A program made the translations under genes and the position numbers. The notes below the pieces were generated by a model that ran no database searches, was not told where the DNA came from, and saw only the letters and a program-made list of their open reading frames with translations. From positions 4,306-68,305 of the forward strand of contig CAVYXU010000015.1 in the NCBI GenBank assembly GCA_963772565.1: a DNA stretch of 64,000 nt. The letters are read 5' to 3'. The stretch is from an uncultured Chloroflexia bacterium (GTDB taxonomy: Bacteria > Chloroflexota > Limnocylindria > Limnocylindrales > CSP1-4). Shown here in pieces: positions 2,056-41,867 of the stretch. Numbering within the stretch: the stretch's first letter is position 1; the number at the start of each line of letters is the position of its first letter.

Positions 2056-2817
2056 ATGCAGATCCCGCTGTTCCCGCTCCGCACCGTCCTCGCGCCCGGG
2101 ATCGCGCTGCCGCTCCACATCTTCGAGGAGCGGTATCGCATGCTCGTCCGGCACTGCCTGGACACGGGATCGCCGTTCGGGGTCGTGATGATCCGCGAGG
2201 GGACTGAGGTTGCACCCTCGAACGGCGAGCGACACGAGCTCTCGATCGCCGCCGTCGGCACCCTCGCCGAGATCCGGGAAGCGAGCGAGTACCCGGATGG
2301 GCGATGGGACCTGCTGGTCGTCGGCAGCCGCCGGTTCGTGGTGGTCGACGTCGACGGCGATGCTGCCCCGTACATCATGGCCGAGGTCGATCCGATCGAC
2401 GACGAGCTCGGCAATGGTCCCGTGGCCGACGCCCTCGTGCAGCGCGTGACCGCGCGCTTCGTCGACTACCTGCGGCTGCTCCAGCCCCGGGATGGCGAAG
2501 CGGTCGAGCCGATCGACGTTCAGGTCGAGGTCGAGGTGCCCGGGACGGATGGCGAGGACGCGATGCGCCCGGGCGGCGGGCCCGGCGAGCTATCGGCGGC
2601 GTTGCGCATTCCCGACGATCCATCGGCGTTGTCGTTCCTGCTCACGGGCATCGTCCAGGTGGAGCTCGATCGCAAGCAGGCGCTGCTCGAGGCGGCGAGC
2701 GCTGAGCGACGGCTGCGCGATCTCGATGACCTGCTCGATCGCGAGCTGCTGCTGCTTGCCCACCGGCTGGCGCCCTTCGCGCCAGATCGGCCGAGCATCT
2801 CGAACCGCGCCAACTGA
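2056..2817 (+). CDS. Lon N-terminal (LON substrate-binding) domain protein.
   Basis: MQIPLFPLRTVLAPGIALPLHIFEERYRMLV... is the typical start of a stand-alone Lon N-domain protein. The start is the ATG at 2056. Confidence 0.75.
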   Translation: MQIPLFPLRTVLAPGIALPLHIFEERYRMLVRHCLDTGSPFGVVMIREGTEVAPSNGERHELSIAAVGTLAEIREASEYPDGRWDLLVVGSRRFVVVDVDGDAAPYIMAEVDPIDDELGNGPVADALVQRVTARFVDYLRLLQPRDGEAVEPIDVQVEVEVPGTDGEDAMRPGGGPGELSAALRIPDDPSALSFLLTGIVQVELDRKQALLEAASAERRLRDLDDLLDRELLLLAHRLAPFAPDRPSISNRAN

Positions 2818-2824
2818 GCCTCGT

Positions 2825-4129
2825 TCAGGCGCGCGCCGTCACGGCGACCGAGAGCCGACGCCGGGCGACGAAGATCGTGAGCGCCGGGATCGCCAGGAAC
2901 GCGCCGCCGAGGACGGCGAGGGTCTGGTAGCCGAGCCAGTCGAGGATCAGCCCTGAGGACACGCTCGCGGCAGCACCGGCGGTCCACACCAGCACATCGG
3001 TCACGCCCTGAAGGCGGATCCGCTCCTCCAGCGATGCGCCGCTGGTGAGCAGGCTGCTGCCCGCGACGAACCCCAGGTTCCAGCCGTACCCGAGCAGGAA
3101 CAGGCCGAGCGTCAGCACGGGGATCTCGGTATCGCGAGCGACGGCCGCCAGGATGGCCGACACCAGCAGCGTCGCGAACCCGCCGTACAGCACCGCGAAT
3201 GCGCCGAACCGCTGGACCAGGCGACCCGAGAGGGGCGACAGCGCGAACATCCCGAGCGTGTGGGCGCTGATCACGAGGCCCACCGTTGACAGCGTCTCGC
3301 CCATGTCCTGGACGTGGACCGGCGTCATCGTCATGATCAGGACCATCACCGTCTGCCCCGTCACCAGGGCAACGAGCGCGACGCGGACCCGCAGCGGTGC
3401 GATGATGCTGAGGCGCCCCCCGAGGAACCCGGGTCGGTCCGCCACGACGGGTGCTGCCTCGACGTCCACGGGCACCATGGTGTCCAGCGACGCGGCTGGG
3501 TCGTCGCCTGCCGGATCGATCGCGGGCCGCGAGCCGCGGATCCAGGCGAGCGTTACCAGGAGGGCAAGCGCGAAGCCGAGCGTGGTGACCGCCATCCCGC
3601 CTTCGAGCGCGGGCCGGCCCAGCGCCTCAGCGACCCACCCTGCGGGTGCGACGAGGTTGGGTCCCAGCACGGCGCCGGCGGTGCTGCCCCAGACGACCGT
3701 TCCGACCGCCGACGCTCGTCGCTCGGGCGCGAGCAGGTCCGTGGCCGCGTAGCGCGAAAGCTGGATCCCGGCGTTGCCGAATCCGAGCGCCAGGCTGCCG
3801 GCGAGGAGCAGCGCGAATGACGAGAGCGCGATGGCCGCGACCGACGCCGCACCGCCTGCGACCGCGATCGCGAAGCCCACCAGCAGCCCCGGCCGCCGTC
3901 CTCGGCGGGCCATCGTGGCCGACAGCAGGGCGATCGCACCCGCCGTCCCGATCGTCCCGATCGCGCTCGGGAGTCCGGACAGCTCCGCCTTGCCGGTGAT
4001 CTCACGAGCCGCCAGCGCCGCCGACGTGAACGCGGCGATGTAGGCGATGCTGCCGAGCGCCGTTGCGGCGACGAACGGAGCAAGACGAACGGTTCCCGGT
4101 TGTCGCTCCGCCGTCGGGGTTGCGGACAT
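2825..4129 (-). CDS. MFS transporter.
   Basis: The protein has about 12 predicted hydrophobic helices and MFS-like loops (e.g. PLSGRLVQRFG). The start is at MSATPTAERQ, confirmed by cat at 4127-4129. The upstream part of the 513-aa ORF is rejected as R-rich read-through. Confidence 0.8.
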   Translation of the reverse strand: MSATPTAERQPGTVRLAPFVAATALGSIAYIAAFTSAALAAREITGKAELSGLPSAIGTIGTAGAIALLSATMARRGRRPGLLVGFAIAVAGGAASVAAIALSSFALLLAGSLALGFGNAGIQLSRYAATDLLAPERRASAVGTVVWGSTAGAVLGPNLVAPAGWVAEALGRPALEGGMAVTTLGFALALLVTLAWIRGSRPAIDPAGDDPAASLDTMVPVDVEAAPVVADRPGFLGGRLSIIAPLRVRVALVALVTGQTVMVLIMTMTPVHVQDMGETLSTVGLVISAHTLGMFALSPLSGRLVQRFGAFAVLYGGFATLLVSAILAAVARDTEIPVLTLGLFLLGYGWNLGFVAGSSLLTSGASLEERIRLQGVTDVLVWTAGAAASVSSGLILDWLGYQTLAVLGGAFLAIPALTIFVARRRLSVAVTARA

Positions 4130-20505: not shown

Positions 20506-21288
20506 TCAGCGTCGGGCGCGTCTGCCCCGGCTCCCGGTCGCCTCGGCTCGCAGCATCTCCACCAGTCGCTCCCGACGATCCGGCGTCAGTCCGCGTTGCG
20601 CCGGGAGCGCCTCGAGCCAGCCGGCGAGCGCGTCAGGTCGAACAACCGCACACGCGGCGGTGCGCTCGACGCGCGGGTCGTCGGTCACGACGACCGCATG
20701 GACCTTGACGAGGAAGTCACGGTCGTCGGACGAGAGCCACCCCCGGACGCGTTCCGCGTCCCGAGCCGTGCCGTCCAGCGGCGGCTCGATCGGGATCCAG
20801 CGGCCCTGCGCGCCGCGGAGCTCCCAGCGGCCCCCGACGATCCGACTCACGCTCGGCGGCGGGACTTCGCCCAGGACGACCACCCCGAACGGTCCCAGGA
20901 CGAGCTCGCGGACCCGGCGGCCCCCCGGAAGCGCAAGGTCGGTCACGGCCACGTGGTCGTCGCCGAGCTTGGTGGCCAGTCGTGGCGCCAGCGTTCGTGG
21001 CCGGGCCGCAGCGTGCTCGACAATGGTGAAGAAGCGAGCGACCCCTAGGATCAGGAAGCCCGCCGGGACGACGATGGCGAAGCCCCACGCGAGGATGCCC
21101 CCGGCCATCTGCATGGCCGTCGCGCGGCCGGTGGGCGTGAACGAGCTGATCATCGGCGTCGCCACGAACATCCAGGCGAGCAACCCGCCCACCAGGATCA
21201 TCATGATGGCGGACACGGCCGCGCGGAAGACGGGGACGCGGCCCGCGCGGGACGCCGGCGCCGCGGCAGCGATCACTTGCATGGCCAT
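20506..21288 (-). CDS. Membrane protein with a NERD-like soluble domain (hypothetical).
   Basis: Two or three N-terminal TM helices are followed by HVAVTDLALPGGRRVRELVLGPFGVVVLGEVPPP, which resembles the nuclease-related NERD fold pattern. Confidence 0.55.
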   Translation of the reverse strand: MAMQVIAAAAPASRAGRVPVFRAAVSAIMMILVGGLLAWMFVATPMISSFTPTGRATAMQMAGGILAWGFAIVVPAGFLILGVARFFTIVEHAAARPRTLAPRLATKLGDDHVAVTDLALPGGRRVRELVLGPFGVVVLGEVPPPSVSRIVGGRWELRGAQGRWIPIEPPLDGTARDAERVRGWLSSDDRDFLVKVHAVVVTDDPRVERTAACAVVRPDALAGWLEALPAQRGLTPDRRERLVEMLRAEATGSRGRRARR

Positions 21289-21584
21289 ATCCTCGCGAGC
21301 CCTTCCTCTCCTGGGTATGCCCCGTTCGGGCTACAACGGGACGGGCCAGGGTCCTCACGACCGTACCGGAGCGCACCGGAGCGAACCGCATCGGTGCCCG
21401 CGTGCACCGCCAATTCGCGGCTCGGGCTGGAACCGACGGCGCGATGCACCCCGGACGACGCGCCGTCTGTACCCCCGCGACCCGGTTGAGGCCGGGACCC
21501 CCGTACCATTGCGCGCCGTCCACGTCGCTCCGATCCTGCAGGTAAGCCGCACATCTGCCGGGGGGCAGGGAGCCTGGAGCCGCG

Positions 21585-22130
21585 TTGGTCCACCTCACGA
21601 TACGAGCACTGCGCATGGTCGTGCGCGGCCTCGGCCAGTCGCCGGCCCGGGCGCTGATCGCGGCCGCCCTCCTGGTTGCGCTGGCCGTCCTTCCGGCTGC
21701 GGCGGGGGGTCCGTCCGGCCTCACGACGCCATCGGTCTCCCCGACGTCCGGCACGACGGCGACGGCAATCTCGTTCGCCGTCACCTATCACAGTGCGAAG
21801 GACGACGCGCCTGACTACGTGCGCGTCGTCGTCGGCTCGAAGACCTACCCGCTGGAGCGAACGGCCGGGTTGGAGACCTGGAAGAACGGCGTCCGGTACA
21901 CAACGACGACCAGGCTGCCCGCGGGTACGTGGACCGTCCGGTTCGAAGCCAGGTCTGGGTCGTTCGAGCCGAGCGTCGCCGGGGATACGGTGACAATCAC
22001 GCCCGCGCCGACGCCCAAACCCACACCTGCGCCAACGCCCAGGCCCACACCAACGCCCAAACCCACACCTGCGCCAACGCCCAGGCCCACGCCCGCGCCG
22101 ACGCCCAAGCCGACCCCGGCGCCCACCTAA
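21585..22130 (+). CDS. Secreted protein with a C-terminal Pro/Thr-rich tandem repeat (possibly the N-terminal part of a frameshifted longer gene).
   Basis: The signal peptide is [41 protein letters not shown]. An approximately 120-aa domain follows, then ([14 protein letters not shown])n ending at TAA 22128-22130. Confidence 0.6.
21993..22127 (+). repeat. Tandem 42-nt coding repeat ([14 protein letters not shown]), 2 near-perfect copies at 22011-22094 plus degenerate flanks.
   Basis: The unit acgcccaaacccacacctgcgccaacgcccaggcccacacca is repeated directly. Confidence 0.8.
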
Positions 22131-23149
22131 GGCCCGCATCGACGCCGGCACCGACGTCGTCGCCGGTCGGGACCGCTTCGCCGAGCGTCCCGCATACGGC
22201 CGTTCTCGATGGCGATCCGGGAGCCGGCCCCGGAACCCAGACGTCCGAGCCGACCCCGAACCTTGACTCGTCGCCCTCGTCGCCCTCGCCGAGTCCCGAT
22301 CCGGTCACCGCGGGGATCCTCGGCGGAACGGGCTCCGGCGGAACGGGGTCCGGTGGCCCCGGCGGTTCCGATAGCTCCGGTTCCGGCGGCCCGGGTCCCG
22401 GCGGGGCCGGCGACGGGAGCGGGAGCCTGCCCGGCGGGCTCAGTGGATCATCGAGCCTGACGGCCACCGTGCTTCGAACCCTGCCCACGGTGGTGGTGAC
22501 GACGGGCGGCGTCACCATGCTCATGGCATTCATGATGTTCGGGAAGCGCCGACGCGACGGCGAGCCCAACGGCTCCGACGACGAGCTCGCCGAGGCCGCG
22601 CGGCGCGGGTACGGCATGGGCGGCTACTCCGGGCTGGTGCCCGAGGCTGCCGCTGCCCCGGCCGCGCTCCAGGCCGTGATCGTATCCGCGCCCGCGGGCG
22701 AGACCGACCAGCACCTGCCGCGCTGGCGCCGGCCCTCGCTGATGGAGGCCCGCAAGAACGATCCGCTGCGCAGTGCCTCCACCACCGTCCGGCTCACCTT
22801 TGACGGGGAAGCCGGGGAGGCCGTCAGCGGCCTTGAACGACGGCTCATCCGGTATCGCCTCGTCAGCCTGCTCGACATGCCCGACGAGGTCCGTGGCGTC
22901 GAGATCGACGTCCTCGACGAGGGTGACGAGGTCGTGCTGCTCGAGAAGCGTGGGACCTACTGGCGGGTGCTGTGCCCCGACGGCCGCGAAGGATGGCTCC
23001 ACAAGATGACGCTGGGCGATGTCGTCATCGGCAGCTCCGTCTCCGACGCGGCGAGCTGGACCTCGGGCGACGAGGATGTCGATGCGGGCGGCTTCGAGGA
23101 CGTCCTGCGCGCCTACGACGAGCACCGGCGGCAGTTCGGAGACGCCTGA
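22131..23149 (+). CDS. Continuation reading frame: Gly/Ser/Pro-rich linker, TM anchor, then a cytoplasmic domain with an SH3-like segment.
   Basis: The frame is open from the TAA of the previous ORF and reads ...LPTVVVTTGGVTMLMAFMMFGKRRRD (TM plus positive stop-transfer), then RGVEIDVLDEGDEVVLLEKRGTYWRVLCPDGREGWLHKM. There is no convincing independent start, though the GTG around 22463 is an alternative. Confidence 0.45.
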
Positions 23150-23151
23150 CC

Positions 23152-24102
23152 TCAGCGATCGGGCTTCGGGGTCGCCTTTGCGGCGCGGGTATTGGCCGGT
23201 GCCTTGCGCAGCACCAGGATGTGCTGGTGCGCGATGTTGGGAACGAATGAGCGCGGGTAGCCGTACGGCCGCAGCCGCGTCCCCGCCTGGTACCAGGCGA
23301 TGTCGCCCTTGGGAACCAGGCCCGCGGCGTCCGCCCGAGCTGCGAGATCGGCGGCCGTGAACAGGTACCGGCCGCCCTGGTACGCGTCGCGCACGATCAG
23401 CACCGCATAGCGGCCCGGGCGAAGGATCCGATGGACCTCGCCGAGCACCTCGCCCATCGCGTCCAGAAACGACGGGTAGTCGGGCAGGTTCGCCAGGTCC
23501 GCGTCAAGCGACGACACCATCGCGTAGTCGGTGCGCCGGTTCGCGTGCGCCTCCGCCAGCCTCCCACCCGCCATCGTCATCGGCAGCTGGACGTTGTACG
23601 GCGGGTCCGTGACCACGAAATCGATCGAGTCCGCCCCGATCGTGGGCAGGATCGCCCTGGCGTCGCCCACGCGCAGCTCGAGACCGGAGGGATCGAACGA
23701 GCGCACGCCACCTGGGTCGCTGGCACCCAGGTCCGCGAGCCGTGGCCCCAGGCCATCCCGCTCGGCGGCGAGCGACGCGACGGTTTCGGCGTAGACCGCT
23801 GCCCAGCGCGGGTCGAGCTCGATGCCCAGCGCTCGCCGGGGTCTGCGGGCGATTGCCGCACCCAGCAGCGTGCCGCCCACGCCGGCGAACGGGTCGAGCA
23901 CGAGCTCGTCGCTGCGGGTGAAGAACTCGATCAGGCGGGCCATGAGGCGGGGCGGCTTGTTGGCGCCGTGGACCTTCCGTCGATCGTGCCCGAGCTCCGA
24001 CGGGTAGGCGGTGGTCCAGACGGACTTCGTGAAGTACAGCCACTCCTCGCCGGACAGCTCGTTGAGCTCGTTGGCGGGGTGGGGCGGCCGACGGTCCTGC
24101 AC
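23152..24102 (-). CDS. DNA amino-methyltransferase (N6-adenine or N4-cytosine) with motif I before DPPY.
   Basis: The order is HGANKPPRLMARLIEFFT, DELVLDPFAGVGGT, GIELDP, and then VVTDPPYN about 95 aa later. No restriction endonuclease is seen nearby. Confidence 0.8.
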   Translation of the reverse strand: MQDRRPPHPANELNELSGEEWLYFTKSVWTTAYPSELGHDRRKVHGANKPPRLMARLIEFFTRSDELVLDPFAGVGGTLLGAAIARRPRRALGIELDPRWAAVYAETVASLAAERDGLGPRLADLGASDPGGVRSFDPSGLELRVGDARAILPTIGADSIDFVVTDPPYNVQLPMTMAGGRLAEAHANRRTDYAMVSSLDADLANLPDYPSFLDAMGEVLGEVHRILRPGRYAVLIVRDAYQGGRYLFTAADLAARADAAGLVPKGDIAWYQAGTRLRPYGYPRSFVPNIAHQHILVLRKAPANTRAAKATPKPDR

Positions 24103-24188
24103 CCGCGAAGCGTACCGGCCACCGCGATCGCCGTGGCCGGGAGCGGGCGGGACTGTCTCGAGGCTCAGCGCGGCGTCCCTACAATGCG

Positions 24189-27100
24189 TTGATGCCGGGC
24201 AGAGTCGTCAGCCGCCAGTTCATCGGGCGTGAGCCGGAGCTCGCGCAGATCGACGCGGCCATCGCGGCGGGTGCAAAGGGCGGGGCAGCAACCGTCGTGG
24301 TCGCCTCGAGCGCGGGCATGGGCGCCTCGCGGTTCATCGACGAGGCGCTGACACGCGCCGCGTCGGGAGCCATGCCCCCGCTCGTCATGCGCGGCCGTGC
24401 CGAAGGCCCGGTCGATTCTCCGTGGGCGGCCGTGCTCGAAGCACTGGGACCGGTGCTGTCCGTTCGCCCCCGGGAGGAGCAGCTGGCCCTCCTCCGGCGC
24501 GATCCCCGCTCAATGCTGCTCGCGCTGCCTGGTATGGCCGCGCTTGCCGCCGAGCTCCCCGCTCCTCCGGTCAGCGCGCTGGCTGACCCGGAGCGCCGGC
24601 AGCCCCGGGCTCTCGCGGCACTCCTGCGCTGGCTCGGGCGGCTTGCCCTCGAGAAACCGCTGGTCATCGTGCTCGAGGACCTGCACATCGCCGATGCCGC
24701 CACCCGGGCGTTCGCCACCTTCGTCGCGCGGATTGCCCGGGATGAGCGGCTCACGCTCATCGTCACGTACCAGCCGGACCGCATGACCCGGGAGCATCCG
24801 CTGCGCGACAACCTCGCGATCATCGAGGGCGGCCTCCGCCCGCCGGTCAACATCGAGCTCCGTCCTCTTGCGCGACGGGAGATCGCACGAATGATCGAGG
24901 GCATCGAGGGGGAGCGGCCATCGGCCTCGATCGTGGTTCTCGTCGCCGAGCGCTCGGGCGGCTCGCCGATGGTCGTCGAAGAGCTGGTCGCTGCGCGTCG
25001 GGAGATCCGCAACGTCACCCTCACCGGGACGCTTTCCGACCTCGTCGCGGCGCGACTCCAGGGGCGATCACCCGAGTGCCGGCGCGTTCTGCGGCTCATG
25101 GCGCCCGCGGAGCGCGCGATGAATCGCGGGCAGCTGGCCCTCGCCGCCGCGACGTTCGAGGCCGGGCCGCAGACCCGCCTCCCTCCGCGCTCGACATCCC
25201 TGCCACGGCGCGGAACCGCGTTGATGGATGCCGACCTGTTGGCCGGCCTGGACGAGGCGCTCGAGCACGGGTTCGTGCGCGCCGATGCCGAGGGCCGGAT
25301 GCGGATCCGTCACGAGATGGTCGCCCGCGCCGTGGTCAGCGATCTGCTGCCGACCCAGCTTCCCAGGTATCGAGCCGCGGTGGCCAGGGCGTTCGACGAC
25401 GTGCCCATCGTCGCGGCCATGCACTGGCGTGCGGCACACCGGCTGGTGGAGGCGCGCGACGCCGCCATCCGTGCCGGCCGGCTGGCGATGACCGTCGACG
25501 CGCCCCAGGATGCGCTGGCCGCGTTCGAGATCGCGCTCGAGCTCCCGCCGCCCGATGACCCCGGGGTCGCCGATGAGATGAACGTGGGTCTCCAGGACGA
25601 GGCGGCTGAGGCCGCGCTCGCCGCCCTGCGCCCGACCCGCGCGGTTGCCTACGCGGAAGCGGCGATCGGGGCACTGCGCGAGCGGAGCGATCGGGTCCGG
25701 CACGGGGTTCTCGAAGCCCGACTGGGTCGCTACCGGCTGGCCGCGGGCGATACCGCGGGTGCCACGACGGCGCTCCGGCGGGCCGCGGAGGTCGTGCCGG
25801 ATGCGCCATCGATCGAGCGCGCCCGGATCCTCGCGCTCCTTGCCCAGGAGCGGATGATCGCGGGCGCGTTCCGCGACGCCGAGCGCGCCGCAACCGGGGC
25901 GCTCGTGATCACCGAAGGTCTCGGACCCTCGGCCGAGCCCGAGGCGATCCACGCCATGACGACGCTCGCGGTCGTCAAGGGCTGGAGCGACGATCCGGAG
26001 TCGGCGCTGCCGATCCTCGAGCAGGCGGTCGAGCGCTCCCGCGCCCTCGGCCTGGTCGAGGAATGGTGGCGGGCCGGGGCGAACATGGCCGTCGTCCTGG
26101 AGCTGCTCGGGCGCCAGCAGGAGGCGATCGACGTTGCCTTCCGCGACATGGAGGAGGCGCGCGCCAACGACCTCGACGCGATCTACGGCAACCTGCTCGG
26201 TGGCAACGTCGCCGGGCTCCTGGTCGACGTCGGGCGCTGGCAGGAGGCGCGCGAGCTCAGCCTCCGTGCGCTCGACTGGAGTCCCGCGGGCGTGCCGTTC
26301 GTCAACGCGCTGATCAACCTCGTGCTCGTCGAGATCGAGTCGGAGGCCGGCGAAGAAGCCGGCCGGCTGCTTGGCCGGATCCTGGTGGAGCTCGAGACGG
26401 GCGGCGATCTCCAGTTTGCCGTCCCTGCCTACCAGGCGACCGCCTCGTACGCGATGTGGAGCGGCGACCTGGCCGACGCCCGACGCGCGATCGAGCGCGG
26501 CTGGGCACGCCTGCGCGGGTCCGAGGACTGGGTTCTGGTCGCGCGCATGGCGGCGACGGCGCTCGAGGTCGAGTCCGCGATCGTCACCGCCGCGCTCGAG
26601 AAGCGCCGGATCGCGGACGTGGCCGCCTCGCGGGAGCGCGCGGGCCGGATGCTGGCCGAGGCGGAGGCAGCGGTCGCGCGGGCCGGCCTGGAGTCACCGG
26701 CGACCGCCGGTCGCGAGCCCGGTACCAGCCTGGCAACGGCGCGCGCCTTCTACGAACGGCTTCACGGTCGGGATGATCCGTCGCACTGGGCAAGCCTGGC
26801 GGAGCGATGGCACGAGCTCGGCGATCCGTACCGCGAGGCGCGCGCCCTGTGGCGCCAGGCGGAGGCGAACCTGAACCTGGCCATCGCCGGCAGGGCGGCG
26901 GGGACCCGGGTCAGGACGGACGCCCGCCTCGCGCGTGCCGAGGCACGGGATCCGCTGATCCGGGCGGTCGAGCTTGCGATGGGCCTCCACGCGCGGCCGC
27001 TGCTGCGGGCGCTCCGGGACCTGGGGGGCCGCGCCCTGATCACGCTGCCGCCTGAGGTCGATGCGCTGCTCGAGGAGCCCGTGCCGGCGCCCGCAGAGCC

Positions 27101-27413
27101 GCGGGCGTCGGTTTCGCCGGGCCCTGTCGTCCAGGCATCGGGACCCCCGCCGGTGCCAGTCCCCGCCGGCTTGCGACCCGCCACCGGCGGGGACACGTTC
27201 GGGCTCTCGCGCCGGGAGCTCGAGGTGCTCGCGCTGATCGCGAAGGGTCGGACGAACCGCGAGATCGGCGACCGCCTGTTCATCAGCCAGAAGACCGTGG
27301 GCGTCCACGTCGGAAACATCCTGGCCAAGCTCGGCGTGTCGGGCCGCGTCGAGGCCGCGGCGGTCGCGATCCGGCTGGGTCTCGAGGAGGAGGCGGCGGC
27401 GCGGCGCCGTTGA
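24189..27413 (+). CDS. Large ATP-dependent LuxR-family regulator (LAL/MalT-like: AAA+ NTPase, TPR, C-terminal LuxR HTH).
   Basis: The N-terminal P-loop region is VVVASSAGMGASRF and the Walker B is LVIVLEDLHIAD. There is a long helical repeat region and a C-terminal LSRRELEVLALIAKGRTNREIGDRLFISQKTVGVHVGNILAKLGV. Confidence 0.85.
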   Translation: MMPGRVVSRQFIGREPELAQIDAAIAAGAKGGAATVVVASSAGMGASRFIDEALTRAASGAMPPLVMRGRAEGPVDSPWAAVLEALGPVLSVRPREEQLALLRRDPRSMLLALPGMAALAAELPAPPVSALADPERRQPRALAALLRWLGRLALEKPLVIVLEDLHIADAATRAFATFVARIARDERLTLIVTYQPDRMTREHPLRDNLAIIEGGLRPPVNIELRPLARREIARMIEGIEGERPSASIVVLVAERSGGSPMVVEELVAARREIRNVTLTGTLSDLVAARLQGRSPECRRVLRLMAPAERAMNRGQLALAAATFEAGPQTRLPPRSTSLPRRGTALMDADLLAGLDEALEHGFVRADAEGRMRIRHEMVARAVVSDLLPTQLPRYRAAVARAFDDVPIVAAMHWRAAHRLVEARDAAIRAGRLAMTVDAPQDALAAFEIALELPPPDDPGVADEMNVGLQDEAAEAALAALRPTRAVAYAEAAIGALRERSDRVRHGVLEARLGRYRLAAGDTAGATTALRRAAEVVPDAPSIERARILALLAQERMIAGAFRDAERAATGALVITEGLGPSAEPEAIHAMTTLAVVKGWSDDPESALPILEQAVERSRALGLVEEWWRAGANMAVVLELLGRQQEAIDVAFRDMEEARANDLDAIYGNLLGGNVAGLLVDVGRWQEARELSLRALDWSPAGVPFVNALINLVLVEIESEAGEEAGRLLGRILVELETGGDLQFAVPAYQATASYAMWSGDLADARRAIERGWARLRGSEDWVLVARMAATALEVESAIVTAALEKRRIADVAASRERAGRMLAEAEAAVARAGLESPATAGREPGTSLATARAFYERLHGRDDPSHWASLAERWHELGDPYREARALWRQAEANLNLAIAGRAAGTRVRTDARLARAEARDPLIRAVELAMGLHARPLLRALRDLGGRALITLPPEVDALLEEPVPAPAEPRASVSPGPVVQASGPPPVPVPAGLRPATGGDTFGLSRRELEVLALIAKGRTNREIGDRLFISQKTVGVHVGNILAKLGVSGRVEAAAVAIRLGLEEEAAARRR

Positions 27414-31702: not shown

Positions 31703-32447
31703 TCAGGCGTTACCCAGGCGCTCGACCACCGGGCGCATCGCCTCGAGCGTCTCGAGCGTCGGGGGCCAGGGGACGCATTCGACCTGCGTCACCCCGACCT
31801 CGGTGAAGGCGTGCAATGCATCGGCGATCCGGTCGGCCGAACCGCGAACCGGCACGCCGAAGCCGGCAGCCTCGGAACCGGTCGCGTCCGTCGGCTCGAC
31901 GGCACCGATCATCAGCGGGACCGCCCCGGACCGTGGTCCACGGGGCCGCGACTCGACGTCCTTCGCGTGGTGATACGGCCCGGCGTGGTCGGCCCGGCCG
32001 GTCCGGAGCAGCGGCATGATGATCTCGAGCGCGTCCTCGAACGCCCGACGACATGGTCGAGCGGAAGGCCGTATGCCTCGGCTTCCGAGTCGCCACTGCC
32101 GGCGCCCAGGCCGAACACGAAACGCCCACCCGAGATCTCGTCGAGGGTCTCGACCGCCCGAACCGTGACACCGGGGTTGCGGTGGTTCGCGGACAGCACC
32201 CACGTTCCGACCTCGATCCGCTCGGTTGCGTCCGCCAGGGCCCCGGCGATCGCGACGCACTCCCACCAGCCGCGTGGCCCGGGCCACGCATCGACGCGCC
32301 ACAGGAGCTCGTCCGGGACGCAGACAGTGTCGAAGCCTATGTCCTCGGCCAGCCTCCCCATGGCGCGCAGCTCGTCCCATCGGTGCCGCGCCCGGTCTCG
32401 ATGTCTTCGTACAGGGGGAGCACGACGCCGAACTTGAGGTCACGCAT
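31703..32447 (-). pseudogene. Luciferase-like (F420-dependent-type) oxidoreductase disrupted by two frameshifts.
   Basis: The N-terminus MRDLKFGVVLPLYEDIETG is in one frame. The middle (RWDELRAMGRLAEDIGFDTV...WPGPRGWWECVAIAGALADATERIEVGTWVLSANHRNPGV...GRFVFGLGAGSGDSEAEAYGLP) is in a second frame. The C-terminus (FEDALEIIMPLLRTGRADHAGPYHHA...) is in a third. The shifts are near 32395 and 32040. Confidence 0.7.
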
Positions 32448-40675: not shown

Positions 40676-41867
40676 TCAGCCCGGGATCTGGCCGAGGGTG
40701 ACCTGCACGGTCACCTGGCTGCCGGCCGACTTCATCACCACCACGGGCACCGTCTGCCCCGGCTCGAGGCCCGCGAGCACCACCGACAGGGTATTGCTGT
40801 CCGGCGTCGGCTTGGAATCGATGCTCACGATCAGCTCGCCCGTCTGGATGCCGGCCACGGCGGCCGGCCCGCCGGCGTCGATGCCGTAGACCAGGACGCC
40901 CTGAGCTCCCATCACGTTCGCGGCGCGGATCCCGAGGTAGGCACGATGCGAGCTGGTCACCTTGCCCGAGGCGATCAGCTGTCCCGCGAAGTCCTTCGCG
41001 TCGTTGCTCGGGATCGCGAACCCGATGCCCGGCGCCGACCCTCCGATCTGCTGATCCACGGCGGCGAGTGTCGGGATCCCGACGACATCGCCGTGGATGT
41101 CGACCAGCGCCCCCCCGCTGTTGCCGGGGTTGATCGCAGCGCTGGTCTGAATCGTGCCGGGCAGGGTCACGCCACCGGGCTCGGTCACGGTACGGCCGAG
41201 CGCGCTGACGATGCCCTGGGTGACGCTGGTCTGGAGGCCGAGCGGGTTGCCGACCGCCATCACGATCTGGCCGACCCGGAGCATCGCCGAAATCGGCGAA
41301 CGTCGCCGGCTGCAGACCGGTCGCGTGGATCGACAGCACGGCGATGTCATTCGCCGCGAAGGTGCCGACGAGCGTCCCGGTGAACTGGCGGCCGTCGGCG
41401 AGGGTGACGTTGAAGGTGCTGGCTCCGCCGACCACGTGTGCGTTGGTCACGATGTCGCCGTTGGCGTCGAGCACGATCCCCGATCCGAGGCCGAGCGGCG
41501 TCTGGATCACGACGACGGAGGGGGAGACCCGCTGCACGACAGACTCGTAGTCCTGCTGCAGCTGCGCGAGGGCGTTGCCGTCGCCCGGCAGACCCGACGT
41601 GGAGCCCACACCCGGTGTCGCGCTCGGTGCGGCGGGGACGCTCGTGGGAGCGGACCCTGGCGTGGAGACGGCAGCGGAGGCCGGGGCCGTCGTCGAGGCC
41701 GGGGCCGACCCGCAGGCCGCGACGATCAGCAGGGTTGCCGCCAGCCAGCCAAGCAGCCTGCGGGGCGGCCGAGCGCCCGCAGGGCGATGTGGTGTCGAGG
41801 ACGTGGGGACGCGCGCGCGGCCGCGACGCGTCGGCAGGGTCATGGTCTGCATCTGCACTCCGATCAC
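40676..41867 (-). pseudogene. htrA: HtrA/DegP-type trypsin-like serine protease with PDZ domain, interrupted by a single frameshift near 41285.
   Basis: The N-terminal half (signal anchor, then [29 protein letters not shown] with His, and the Asp region NDIAVLSI) is in one frame to ..ATFADF. The remainder is in another frame: [28 protein letters not shown] with Ser, and the PDZ domain. Confidence 0.7.

Follow-up and report, generated by a model that had tools for sequence, protein, structure and literature searches.

Are the two open reading frames (ORFs) that follow one another at positions 21585-23149 of the stretch studied here two neighbouring genes, one for a secreted protein with a Pro/Thr repeat tail and one for a membrane protein, or are they the halves of a single gene whose frame has been broken? 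The stretch, referred to throughout as the window, comprises 64,000 nucleotides (nt) of contig CAVYXU010000015.1 from the assembly GCA_963772565.1 of an uncultured Chloroflexia bacterium in the order Limnocylindrales. A sequence-only reading of this DNA had proposed that the two ORFs are one gene split by a frameshift, and comparison with related loci now supports that proposal, as the two parts share one frame in 55 of 69 relatives and the segment that joins them is itself homologous to the linkers of intact genes. On the evidence of these comparisons, 21585-23149 is best described as one gene of about 521 codons, the frame of which has been broken by a small indel.

The first frame, ORF1, begins on the forward strand at a TTG codon (21585) with GGAG 5 nt upstream, encodes 181 amino acids (aa) and ends at 22130, being closed by a TAA codon (22128-22130) after a Pro/Thr repeat. 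Tandem Repeats Finder recognises a 42-nt unit here, present in 1.9 exact copies within a longer and degenerate Pro/Thr array (Table 1), so that the earlier description of ORF1 as ending in tandem repeats and a TAA was recovered with both its coordinates and its repeat. The ORF2 frame, in which codons start at positions that leave a remainder of 2 when divided by 3, is stop-free from 21815 to the TGA at 23149 and is therefore open past the TAA, as had been claimed. Its product contains, in order, a P/S/G-rich stretch, the segment LPTVVVTTGGVTMLMAFMMFG followed directly by KRRRD, and an SH3-like segment. Possible starts in this frame are a GTG at 21929, which lies within ORF1, and a second GTG at 22469, with none between the two, and no Shine-Dalgarno-like sequence was found upstream of GTG 22469. 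The remark that the downstream ORF lacks a convincing ribosome site or ATG of its own was thus borne out. The openness of the ORF2 frame carries little weight by itself, since 36% of the 113-codon stretches in this window (71% G+C) are stop-free as well, and a frame plot of G+C content at third codon positions (GC3) is uninformative across the linker owing to its biased composition. The case for ORF2 being coding rests on homology, not on openness.

That homology is extensive. With the transmembrane (TM) and cytoplasmic part as the query, 707 relatives were collected from Chloroflexota metagenome-assembled genomes (MAGs), mostly labelled Candidatus Limnocylindrales, and a scan of one genome per species yielded 80 loci, not including the entry for the window itself, which served as a control. 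In 69 of the 80, tblastn places a counterpart of the ORF1 domain immediately before the TM/SH3 part; these 69 are all the loci in which the upstream flank is long enough. Both parts stand in one frame with no stop between them in 55 of these 69, forming a single ORF of approximately 490-540 codons, and the intact loci include L001, L002 and L003, the three nearest relatives, in which the C-terminal part is 90-94% identical to that of the window. Relatives are therefore mainly one gene and not consistently two, which settles in its favour the ortholog comparison that the sequence-only reading had called for. An uninterrupted frame through all parts is the one family feature that the window lacks, given its TAA at 22128-22130 and the frame offset that follows.

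The stretch between the two ORFs is equally informative. When 22133-22468 is read in the ORF2 frame it matches the linkers of the three closest relatives with 57-64% identity (E = 1e-36 to 1e-42), while the other two frames of the same DNA give weak low-complexity matches only. Since this segment is conserved as coding sequence yet contains no start, its translation must begin upstream. Protein databases tell the same story. An exhaustive phmmer search of 1.84 billion representatives returned 602 relatives of the cytoplasmic part, and among the 147 newly listed representatives matching this part, 82 are at least 440 aa long, 62 of them carrying an Ig-like (immunoglobulin-like) domain of the ORF1 type. 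Proteins of full length, about 470-550 aa, are frequent in these databases; P0135 (494 aa), for example, matches ORF1 with E=9e-28 and the C-terminal part with E=5e-80. The window thus holds a broken or mis-read copy of a member of a family of proteins of about 500 aa with an Ig-like domain, a Pro/Thr (PT) stalk, a TM helix and a cytoplasmic SH3 domain, and the appropriate annotation for its two ORFs is a single gene, or a single gene with a frameshift.

Table 1. Features of the reconstructed gene, in window coordinates; domain and topology assignments are predictions
Feature	Position	Strand	Basis or remark
Start and signal peptide	21585..21707	+	TTG; Arg-rich n-region, hydrophobic stretch, A-x-A-type end
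Ig-like beta-sandwich	21714..22001	+	Residues 44-139; AlphaFold2 and Foldseek
Pro/Thr repeat linker, ORF1 frame	21998..22126	+	Exact 42-nt duplication at 22011-22090
Frame junction, ACC/TA/AGG	22128..22129	+	One base missing or TA extra
Linker continuation, ORF2 frame	22130..22480	+	P/S/T-rich, then G/S-rich; aligns to L001-L003
Single TM helix LPTVVVTTGGVTMLMAFMMFG, then KRRRD	22481..22543	+	Hydropathy, flanking charges, conservation
Cytoplasmic motif HLPRWRRPSLMEARK	22712..22756	+	Conservation in three alignments
Cytoplasmic SH3-fold domain	22838..23023	+	AlphaFold2, pLDDT (predicted local distance difference test) 90-97; Foldseek
Conserved C-terminal helix (FEDVLRAY..R.QFG) and TGA	23093..23149	+	Alignment; AlphaFold2

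The point at which the frame breaks can be located closely. The two frames meet at a TA dinucleotide that separates ACC (22125-22127), the codon for the last Thr of ORF1, from AGG (22130-22132), which encodes the first residue to align with orthologs in the ORF2 frame; across 22120-22135 the sequence reads ...CCCACCTAAGGCCC..., and the ORF1 frame remains Pro/Thr-like through 22127. At the level of sequence, the lesion is either the loss of one base or the gain of two (TA), and it gives rise to the TAA and puts everything downstream in the next frame. When the junction was aligned at the DNA level with the three closest relatives, the number of Pro/Thr units was found to differ among genomes, and because the length of the array varies in this way the exact edit can be assigned to the 2-nt interval 22128-22129 but not to a particular base. 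A distance of 38 nt separates the end of the exact 42-nt copies from the break, which lies farther downstream, on the 3' margin of the degenerate array. Slippage or collapse of 42-, 24- or 6-nt units keeps the frame and therefore cannot cause the break, for which a shift of the +/-1 nt type is needed. The sequence-only reading had placed the junction in a 42-nt repeat prone to slippage or assembly error, and this holds in part: the junction does sit at the edge of repetitive DNA and an error is favoured, but it falls outside the 42-nt copies, in which slippage would leave the frame unchanged.

As to the cause, we think it probable that the indel arose as an error in the consensus of a metagenome assembled from long reads (Nanopore-type). 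The gene is not the only one in the window to be split. On the minus strand at 40679-41867, an HtrA-like serine protease has positions 1-73 of the Trypsin_2 model in one frame and positions 74-144, together with a PDZ domain, in another; the junction is at about 41290, and dropping one T from the TTT at 41290-41292 restores a typical sequence. A luciferase-like monooxygenase, also on the minus strand (31706-32443), has Bac_luciferase positions 30-127 and 124-176 in different frames, with a junction at about 32040 where the addition of one T to the TT at 32040-32041 restores GRFEDALEIIMPLL. At least three split genes, with breaks at 22128, ~32040 and ~41290, thus occur within the 64 kb. The genes that flank the split gene have ortholog-like lengths, which we count in favour of an artefact.

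The relatives show a similar pattern. Frameshifts or in-frame stops disrupt this gene in 13 of the 69 related loci (L004, L010, L011, L028, L032, L035, L052, L056, L058, L059, L062, L071 and L079), and the disruptions are concentrated in the Microflora Danica MAGs (12 of 44 loci) as compared with other assemblies (1 of 24; Fisher p=0.024). They are single-base indels, such as an extra G in L071 and an extra C in L052, or stops, and they occur at scattered sites that include the conserved cytoplasmic and SH3 region. Such scattered single-base disruptions look like random error; conserved recoding, or a switch driven by the repeat, does not fit this pattern. For the Microflora Danica MAGs, Nanopore reads alone were assembled with Flye and polished by one round of Medaka (PMC12313526). 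The window resembles the split genes of Nanopore-only MAGs in that a small indel has produced two ORFs in overlapping frames and in that several splits occur on one contig. A gene split by an indel is a well-known and ordinary kind of finding, and the practical consequence is that residual single-base indels should be expected on this contig, and that other ORFs of the window that seem split, or short and novel, should be regarded as suspect.

The nature of the site weighs against an assembly error. The classic site of Nanopore error is a long homopolymer, and the junction here is a TA dinucleotide; it differs from the split genes of Nanopore-only MAGs in adjoining a C-rich repeat.

A genuine mutation in the population, that is, a recent pseudogene or a strain-level loss-of-function variant, is the rival that survives best, and we consider it unlikely though worth serious consideration. 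Such a variant would make a secreted Ig-like/PT fragment of 181 aa and little or none of the membrane-anchored SH3 part. The indel is, after all, present in the sequence as given, away from any long homopolymer and in a Pro/Thr linker of a kind that evolves fast, and one of the disrupted relatives, L079, comes from a short-read-type assembly. Set against this, the gene and its neighbourhood are conserved over approximately 80 loci of the class and the downstream part of the window's copy has no further decay, while three or more pseudogenes within 64 kb would be unusually many where the neighbours are otherwise intact. The Nanopore-only MAGs, with their excess of disruptions, likewise point to error.

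The existence of two bona fide genes is far less probable, and has already been largely refuted. Under this explanation a secreted, PT-tailed Ig-like protein would be followed by a separate membrane protein with its N-terminus outside and its C-terminus inside, translated from GTG 22469 (MLRTLPTVVV...). Short products are indeed called in many assemblies, and P0001, a 226-aa protein to which the C-terminal part of the window is 94% identical, is annotated from the GTG equivalent to 22469. Yet the locus of P0001 itself (L002, also recorded as L081) is one intact ORF of 520 codons, GTG 22469 has no ribosome-binding site, and the 340 nt that precede it are conserved at the protein level in the ORF2 frame without containing a start; the in-frame arrangement of most relatives, described above, is also contrary to it. 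The notion that orthologs consist of two genes was first suggested by word-indexed searches, in which the top 120 matches were 150-345 aa long and only five proteins with the N-terminal domain were found, and it was undone by the DNA of intact loci and by the exhaustive protein search. The short lengths of those first matches are explained by ranking, by the sensitivity of the tool and by truncation on the part of gene callers.

This last effect can be seen directly at the L002/L081 locus, where the 520-codon ORF (2122-3681) is represented in the deposited calls by a wrong-frame 94-aa gene over the PT linker and a 226-aa C-terminal fragment, the Ig-like domain being left uncalled. Many of the short database entries of the family may be truncated likewise. 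The low-complexity linker, which passes from Pro/Thr to Gly/Ser, misleads gene callers in a high-G+C genome even when the ORF is intact. The apparent TTG start at 21585 has equivalents in L001-L003, L013, L019 and L044, with a conserved LVHL at the N-terminus and GGAG 5 nt upstream, and many orthologs have no ATG near the start, which may add to the failure of gene callers.

Least credible of all is a programmed frameshift or phase-variable repeat switch that chooses between a secreted and an anchored form, for although the junction borders on repetitive DNA and 13 of the 69 relatives are disrupted too, the orthologs, closest ones included, read through with no shift, other loci break at different and scattered positions (the SH3 region among them), no slippery heptamer is present at CCCACCTAAGG and the repeat units are multiples of 3 nt and so unable to switch the frame. 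With neither a conserved shift site nor a slippery heptamer at the junction, the gene was rejected as a candidate for programmed ribosomal frameshifting.

We therefore return to the single gene with a small indel, probably an assembly error, and consider what its intact product would be. From the reconstructed translation of ~521 aa a type-I single-pass membrane protein with a cytoplasmic SH3 domain is predicted. Its parts would be arranged as a Sec-type signal peptide, an Ig-like domain, a stalk that changes from Pro/Thr to Gly/Ser, a TM helix, a tail with a PRWRRPS motif and an SH3 fold. A first peak of hydropathy, at residues 16-47, corresponds to the signal peptide, and the succession of n-region, hydrophobic region and AxA end is found in all 55 intact orthologs. 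The second hydrophobic segment comprises residues 299-320 and is followed directly by KRRR, which by the positive-inside rule places the predicted N-terminus outside and the C-terminus in the cytoplasm. The topology proposed from the sequence alone, with an extracellular domain, a single helix and stop-transfer signal and a cytoplasmic SH3-like segment, therefore agrees with what was found when the fused translation was examined, namely a signal peptide, one TM helix with its KRRR on the C-terminal side and an inward-facing C-terminus.

The N-terminal domain outside the membrane was modelled by AlphaFold2 with a pLDDT of 85-98 over residues 41-140. Its best Foldseek match in the PDB is a module of a multi-modular xanthanase (6fhn; E=6.6e-6, root-mean-square deviation (rmsd) 1.7 A over 103 columns), and the remaining matches are generic Ig-like folds. 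Pfam and NCBIfam searches of ORF1 gave low-complexity noise only, with no Pfam family for the N-terminal domain. The stalk that follows is about 160 residues long, with Pro making up 25% of it, Gly 18%, and Ser and Thr 15% each. Orthologs have PT linkers at the same place that vary in length, and they also keep a DP(V/L)TAG motif found in the window at 22298-22315.

Conservation is strongest in and just beyond the membrane. The helix and juxtamembrane region (22481-22560) follow a pattern, ..TTGG..M.MAF..FGKRRRD, that is nearly invariant across the family in three alignments (A1-A3). All three keep the A, F, F and G of MAF..FG without exception, and the flanking M, the RRR and the other conserved positions are invariant or conserved to at least 90%. 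Such a degree of conservation is unusual for a membrane anchor and suggests, from the alignments, that the helix may dimerise or make a specific intramembrane contact with a partner. Within the cytoplasmic motif HLPRWRRPSLMEARK, PRWRR, S and a later R are likewise invariant in the three alignments and the other residues are invariant or nearly so.

The cytoplasmic domain has been assigned as SH3 chiefly by its fold. Foldseek matched the model to the SH3b domain of a dipeptidyl-peptidase VI (3npf; E=1.2e-3, rmsd 1.8 A), with further matches to a Clostridium SH3, an endolysin SH3_3 and eukaryotic SH3 domains, and almost all of the top 50 were SH3. The sequence-only reading had suggested a profile search for SH3_3 at 22860-23010, with a mixed outcome. 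In the window the Pfam SH3_3 match (E=0.0036, 17.9 bits) falls below the 27-bit gathering cut-off, but 35 of the 55 intact orthologs match at E<=0.01, the best at E=8.9e-6, and the SH3 fold predicted for 22838-23023 spans the region in question.

How would such a protein act? Going by its domain architecture, it could be a transmembrane tether or scaffold in which the stalk would hold the Ig-like head off the membrane while a partner inside the cell would be bound by the SH3 domain and the motif of the tail. Against this proposed role, no characterised homolog was found: searching the PDB by sequence with the family profile gave no relative, and a literature search for SH3 proteins in Limnocylindrales found nothing.

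Comparison with known systems brings out likenesses and differences. Bacterial SH3b domains (PF08239, SH3_3) share with the window the SH3 beta-barrel fold, to which the weak to moderate profile matches of the orthologs correspond. SH3b domains are mostly extracytoplasmic modules that bind the cell wall, whereas the predicted topology places the domain of the window in the cytoplasm, and its profile score is below the Pfam cut-off. TIGR04211 (SH3_and_anchor) similarly combines an SH3 domain with a membrane anchor; its members have the SH3 at the N-terminus and the anchor at the C-terminus, the opposite order, with no Ig-like domain or PT stalk, and membership was rejected at 17 bits against a cut-off of 65 bits. 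The LPXTG substrates of sortases resemble the intact protein in their secreted domain, Pro/Thr-rich wall-spanning stalk, hydrophobic helix and KRRR cluster, and Gram_pos_anchor gave a weak match in 1 of the 55 orthologs (E=4e-4). This candidate was also rejected, as no LPXTG is conserved (orthologs have LPT, APT, WPT, ISI and others) and the charged cluster is followed by about 200 conserved cytoplasmic residues instead of the C-terminus.

If the frameshift is set aside, it is possible, though somewhat less likely than not, that the intact gene represents an uncharacterised family, kept in fixed synteny across Limnocylindrales-type Chloroflexota, of envelope-spanning type-I proteins that connect a cytoplasmic SH3 domain, by way of the highly conserved TM helix and the PRWRRPS motif, to the Ig-like head on its Pro/Thr stalk, and that could form a module of a new type for signalling or anchoring across the membrane; a real indel, with the window carrying a loss-of-function variant that occurs in nature, is a less likely addition to this. 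What is mildly novel goes no further than a family, spread across the class and uncharacterised, for which a cytoplasmic SH3 domain is predicted; it may interest those who study the cell envelope of Chloroflexota, although it makes no open question newly testable.

The gene belongs to a syntenic block at 20506-27413 of the window, which also contains a divergently oriented gene for a membrane protein of 260 aa, an N6_N4 DNA methylase and an AAA_16-GerE regulator. By tblastn these three neighbours were found in 70, 80 and 75 of the 80 loci, respectively, and since the neighbourhood is kept in nearly all of them the gene can be assigned to the core genome of the group. The membrane protein is encoded upstream on the minus strand (20506-21288) and has no Pfam match, and the regulator, of the LuxR type by its GerE domain, is 1074 aa long. 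The N6_N4 DNA methyltransferase (316 aa) is encoded on the minus strand at 23152-24102; no restriction enzyme was identified among the neighbouring genes examined, and the enzyme could be an orphan regulatory methylase. In its cluster at 90% identity the other seven proteins are all 330 aa long, and the gap in length may reflect a difference in start site or another small lesion.

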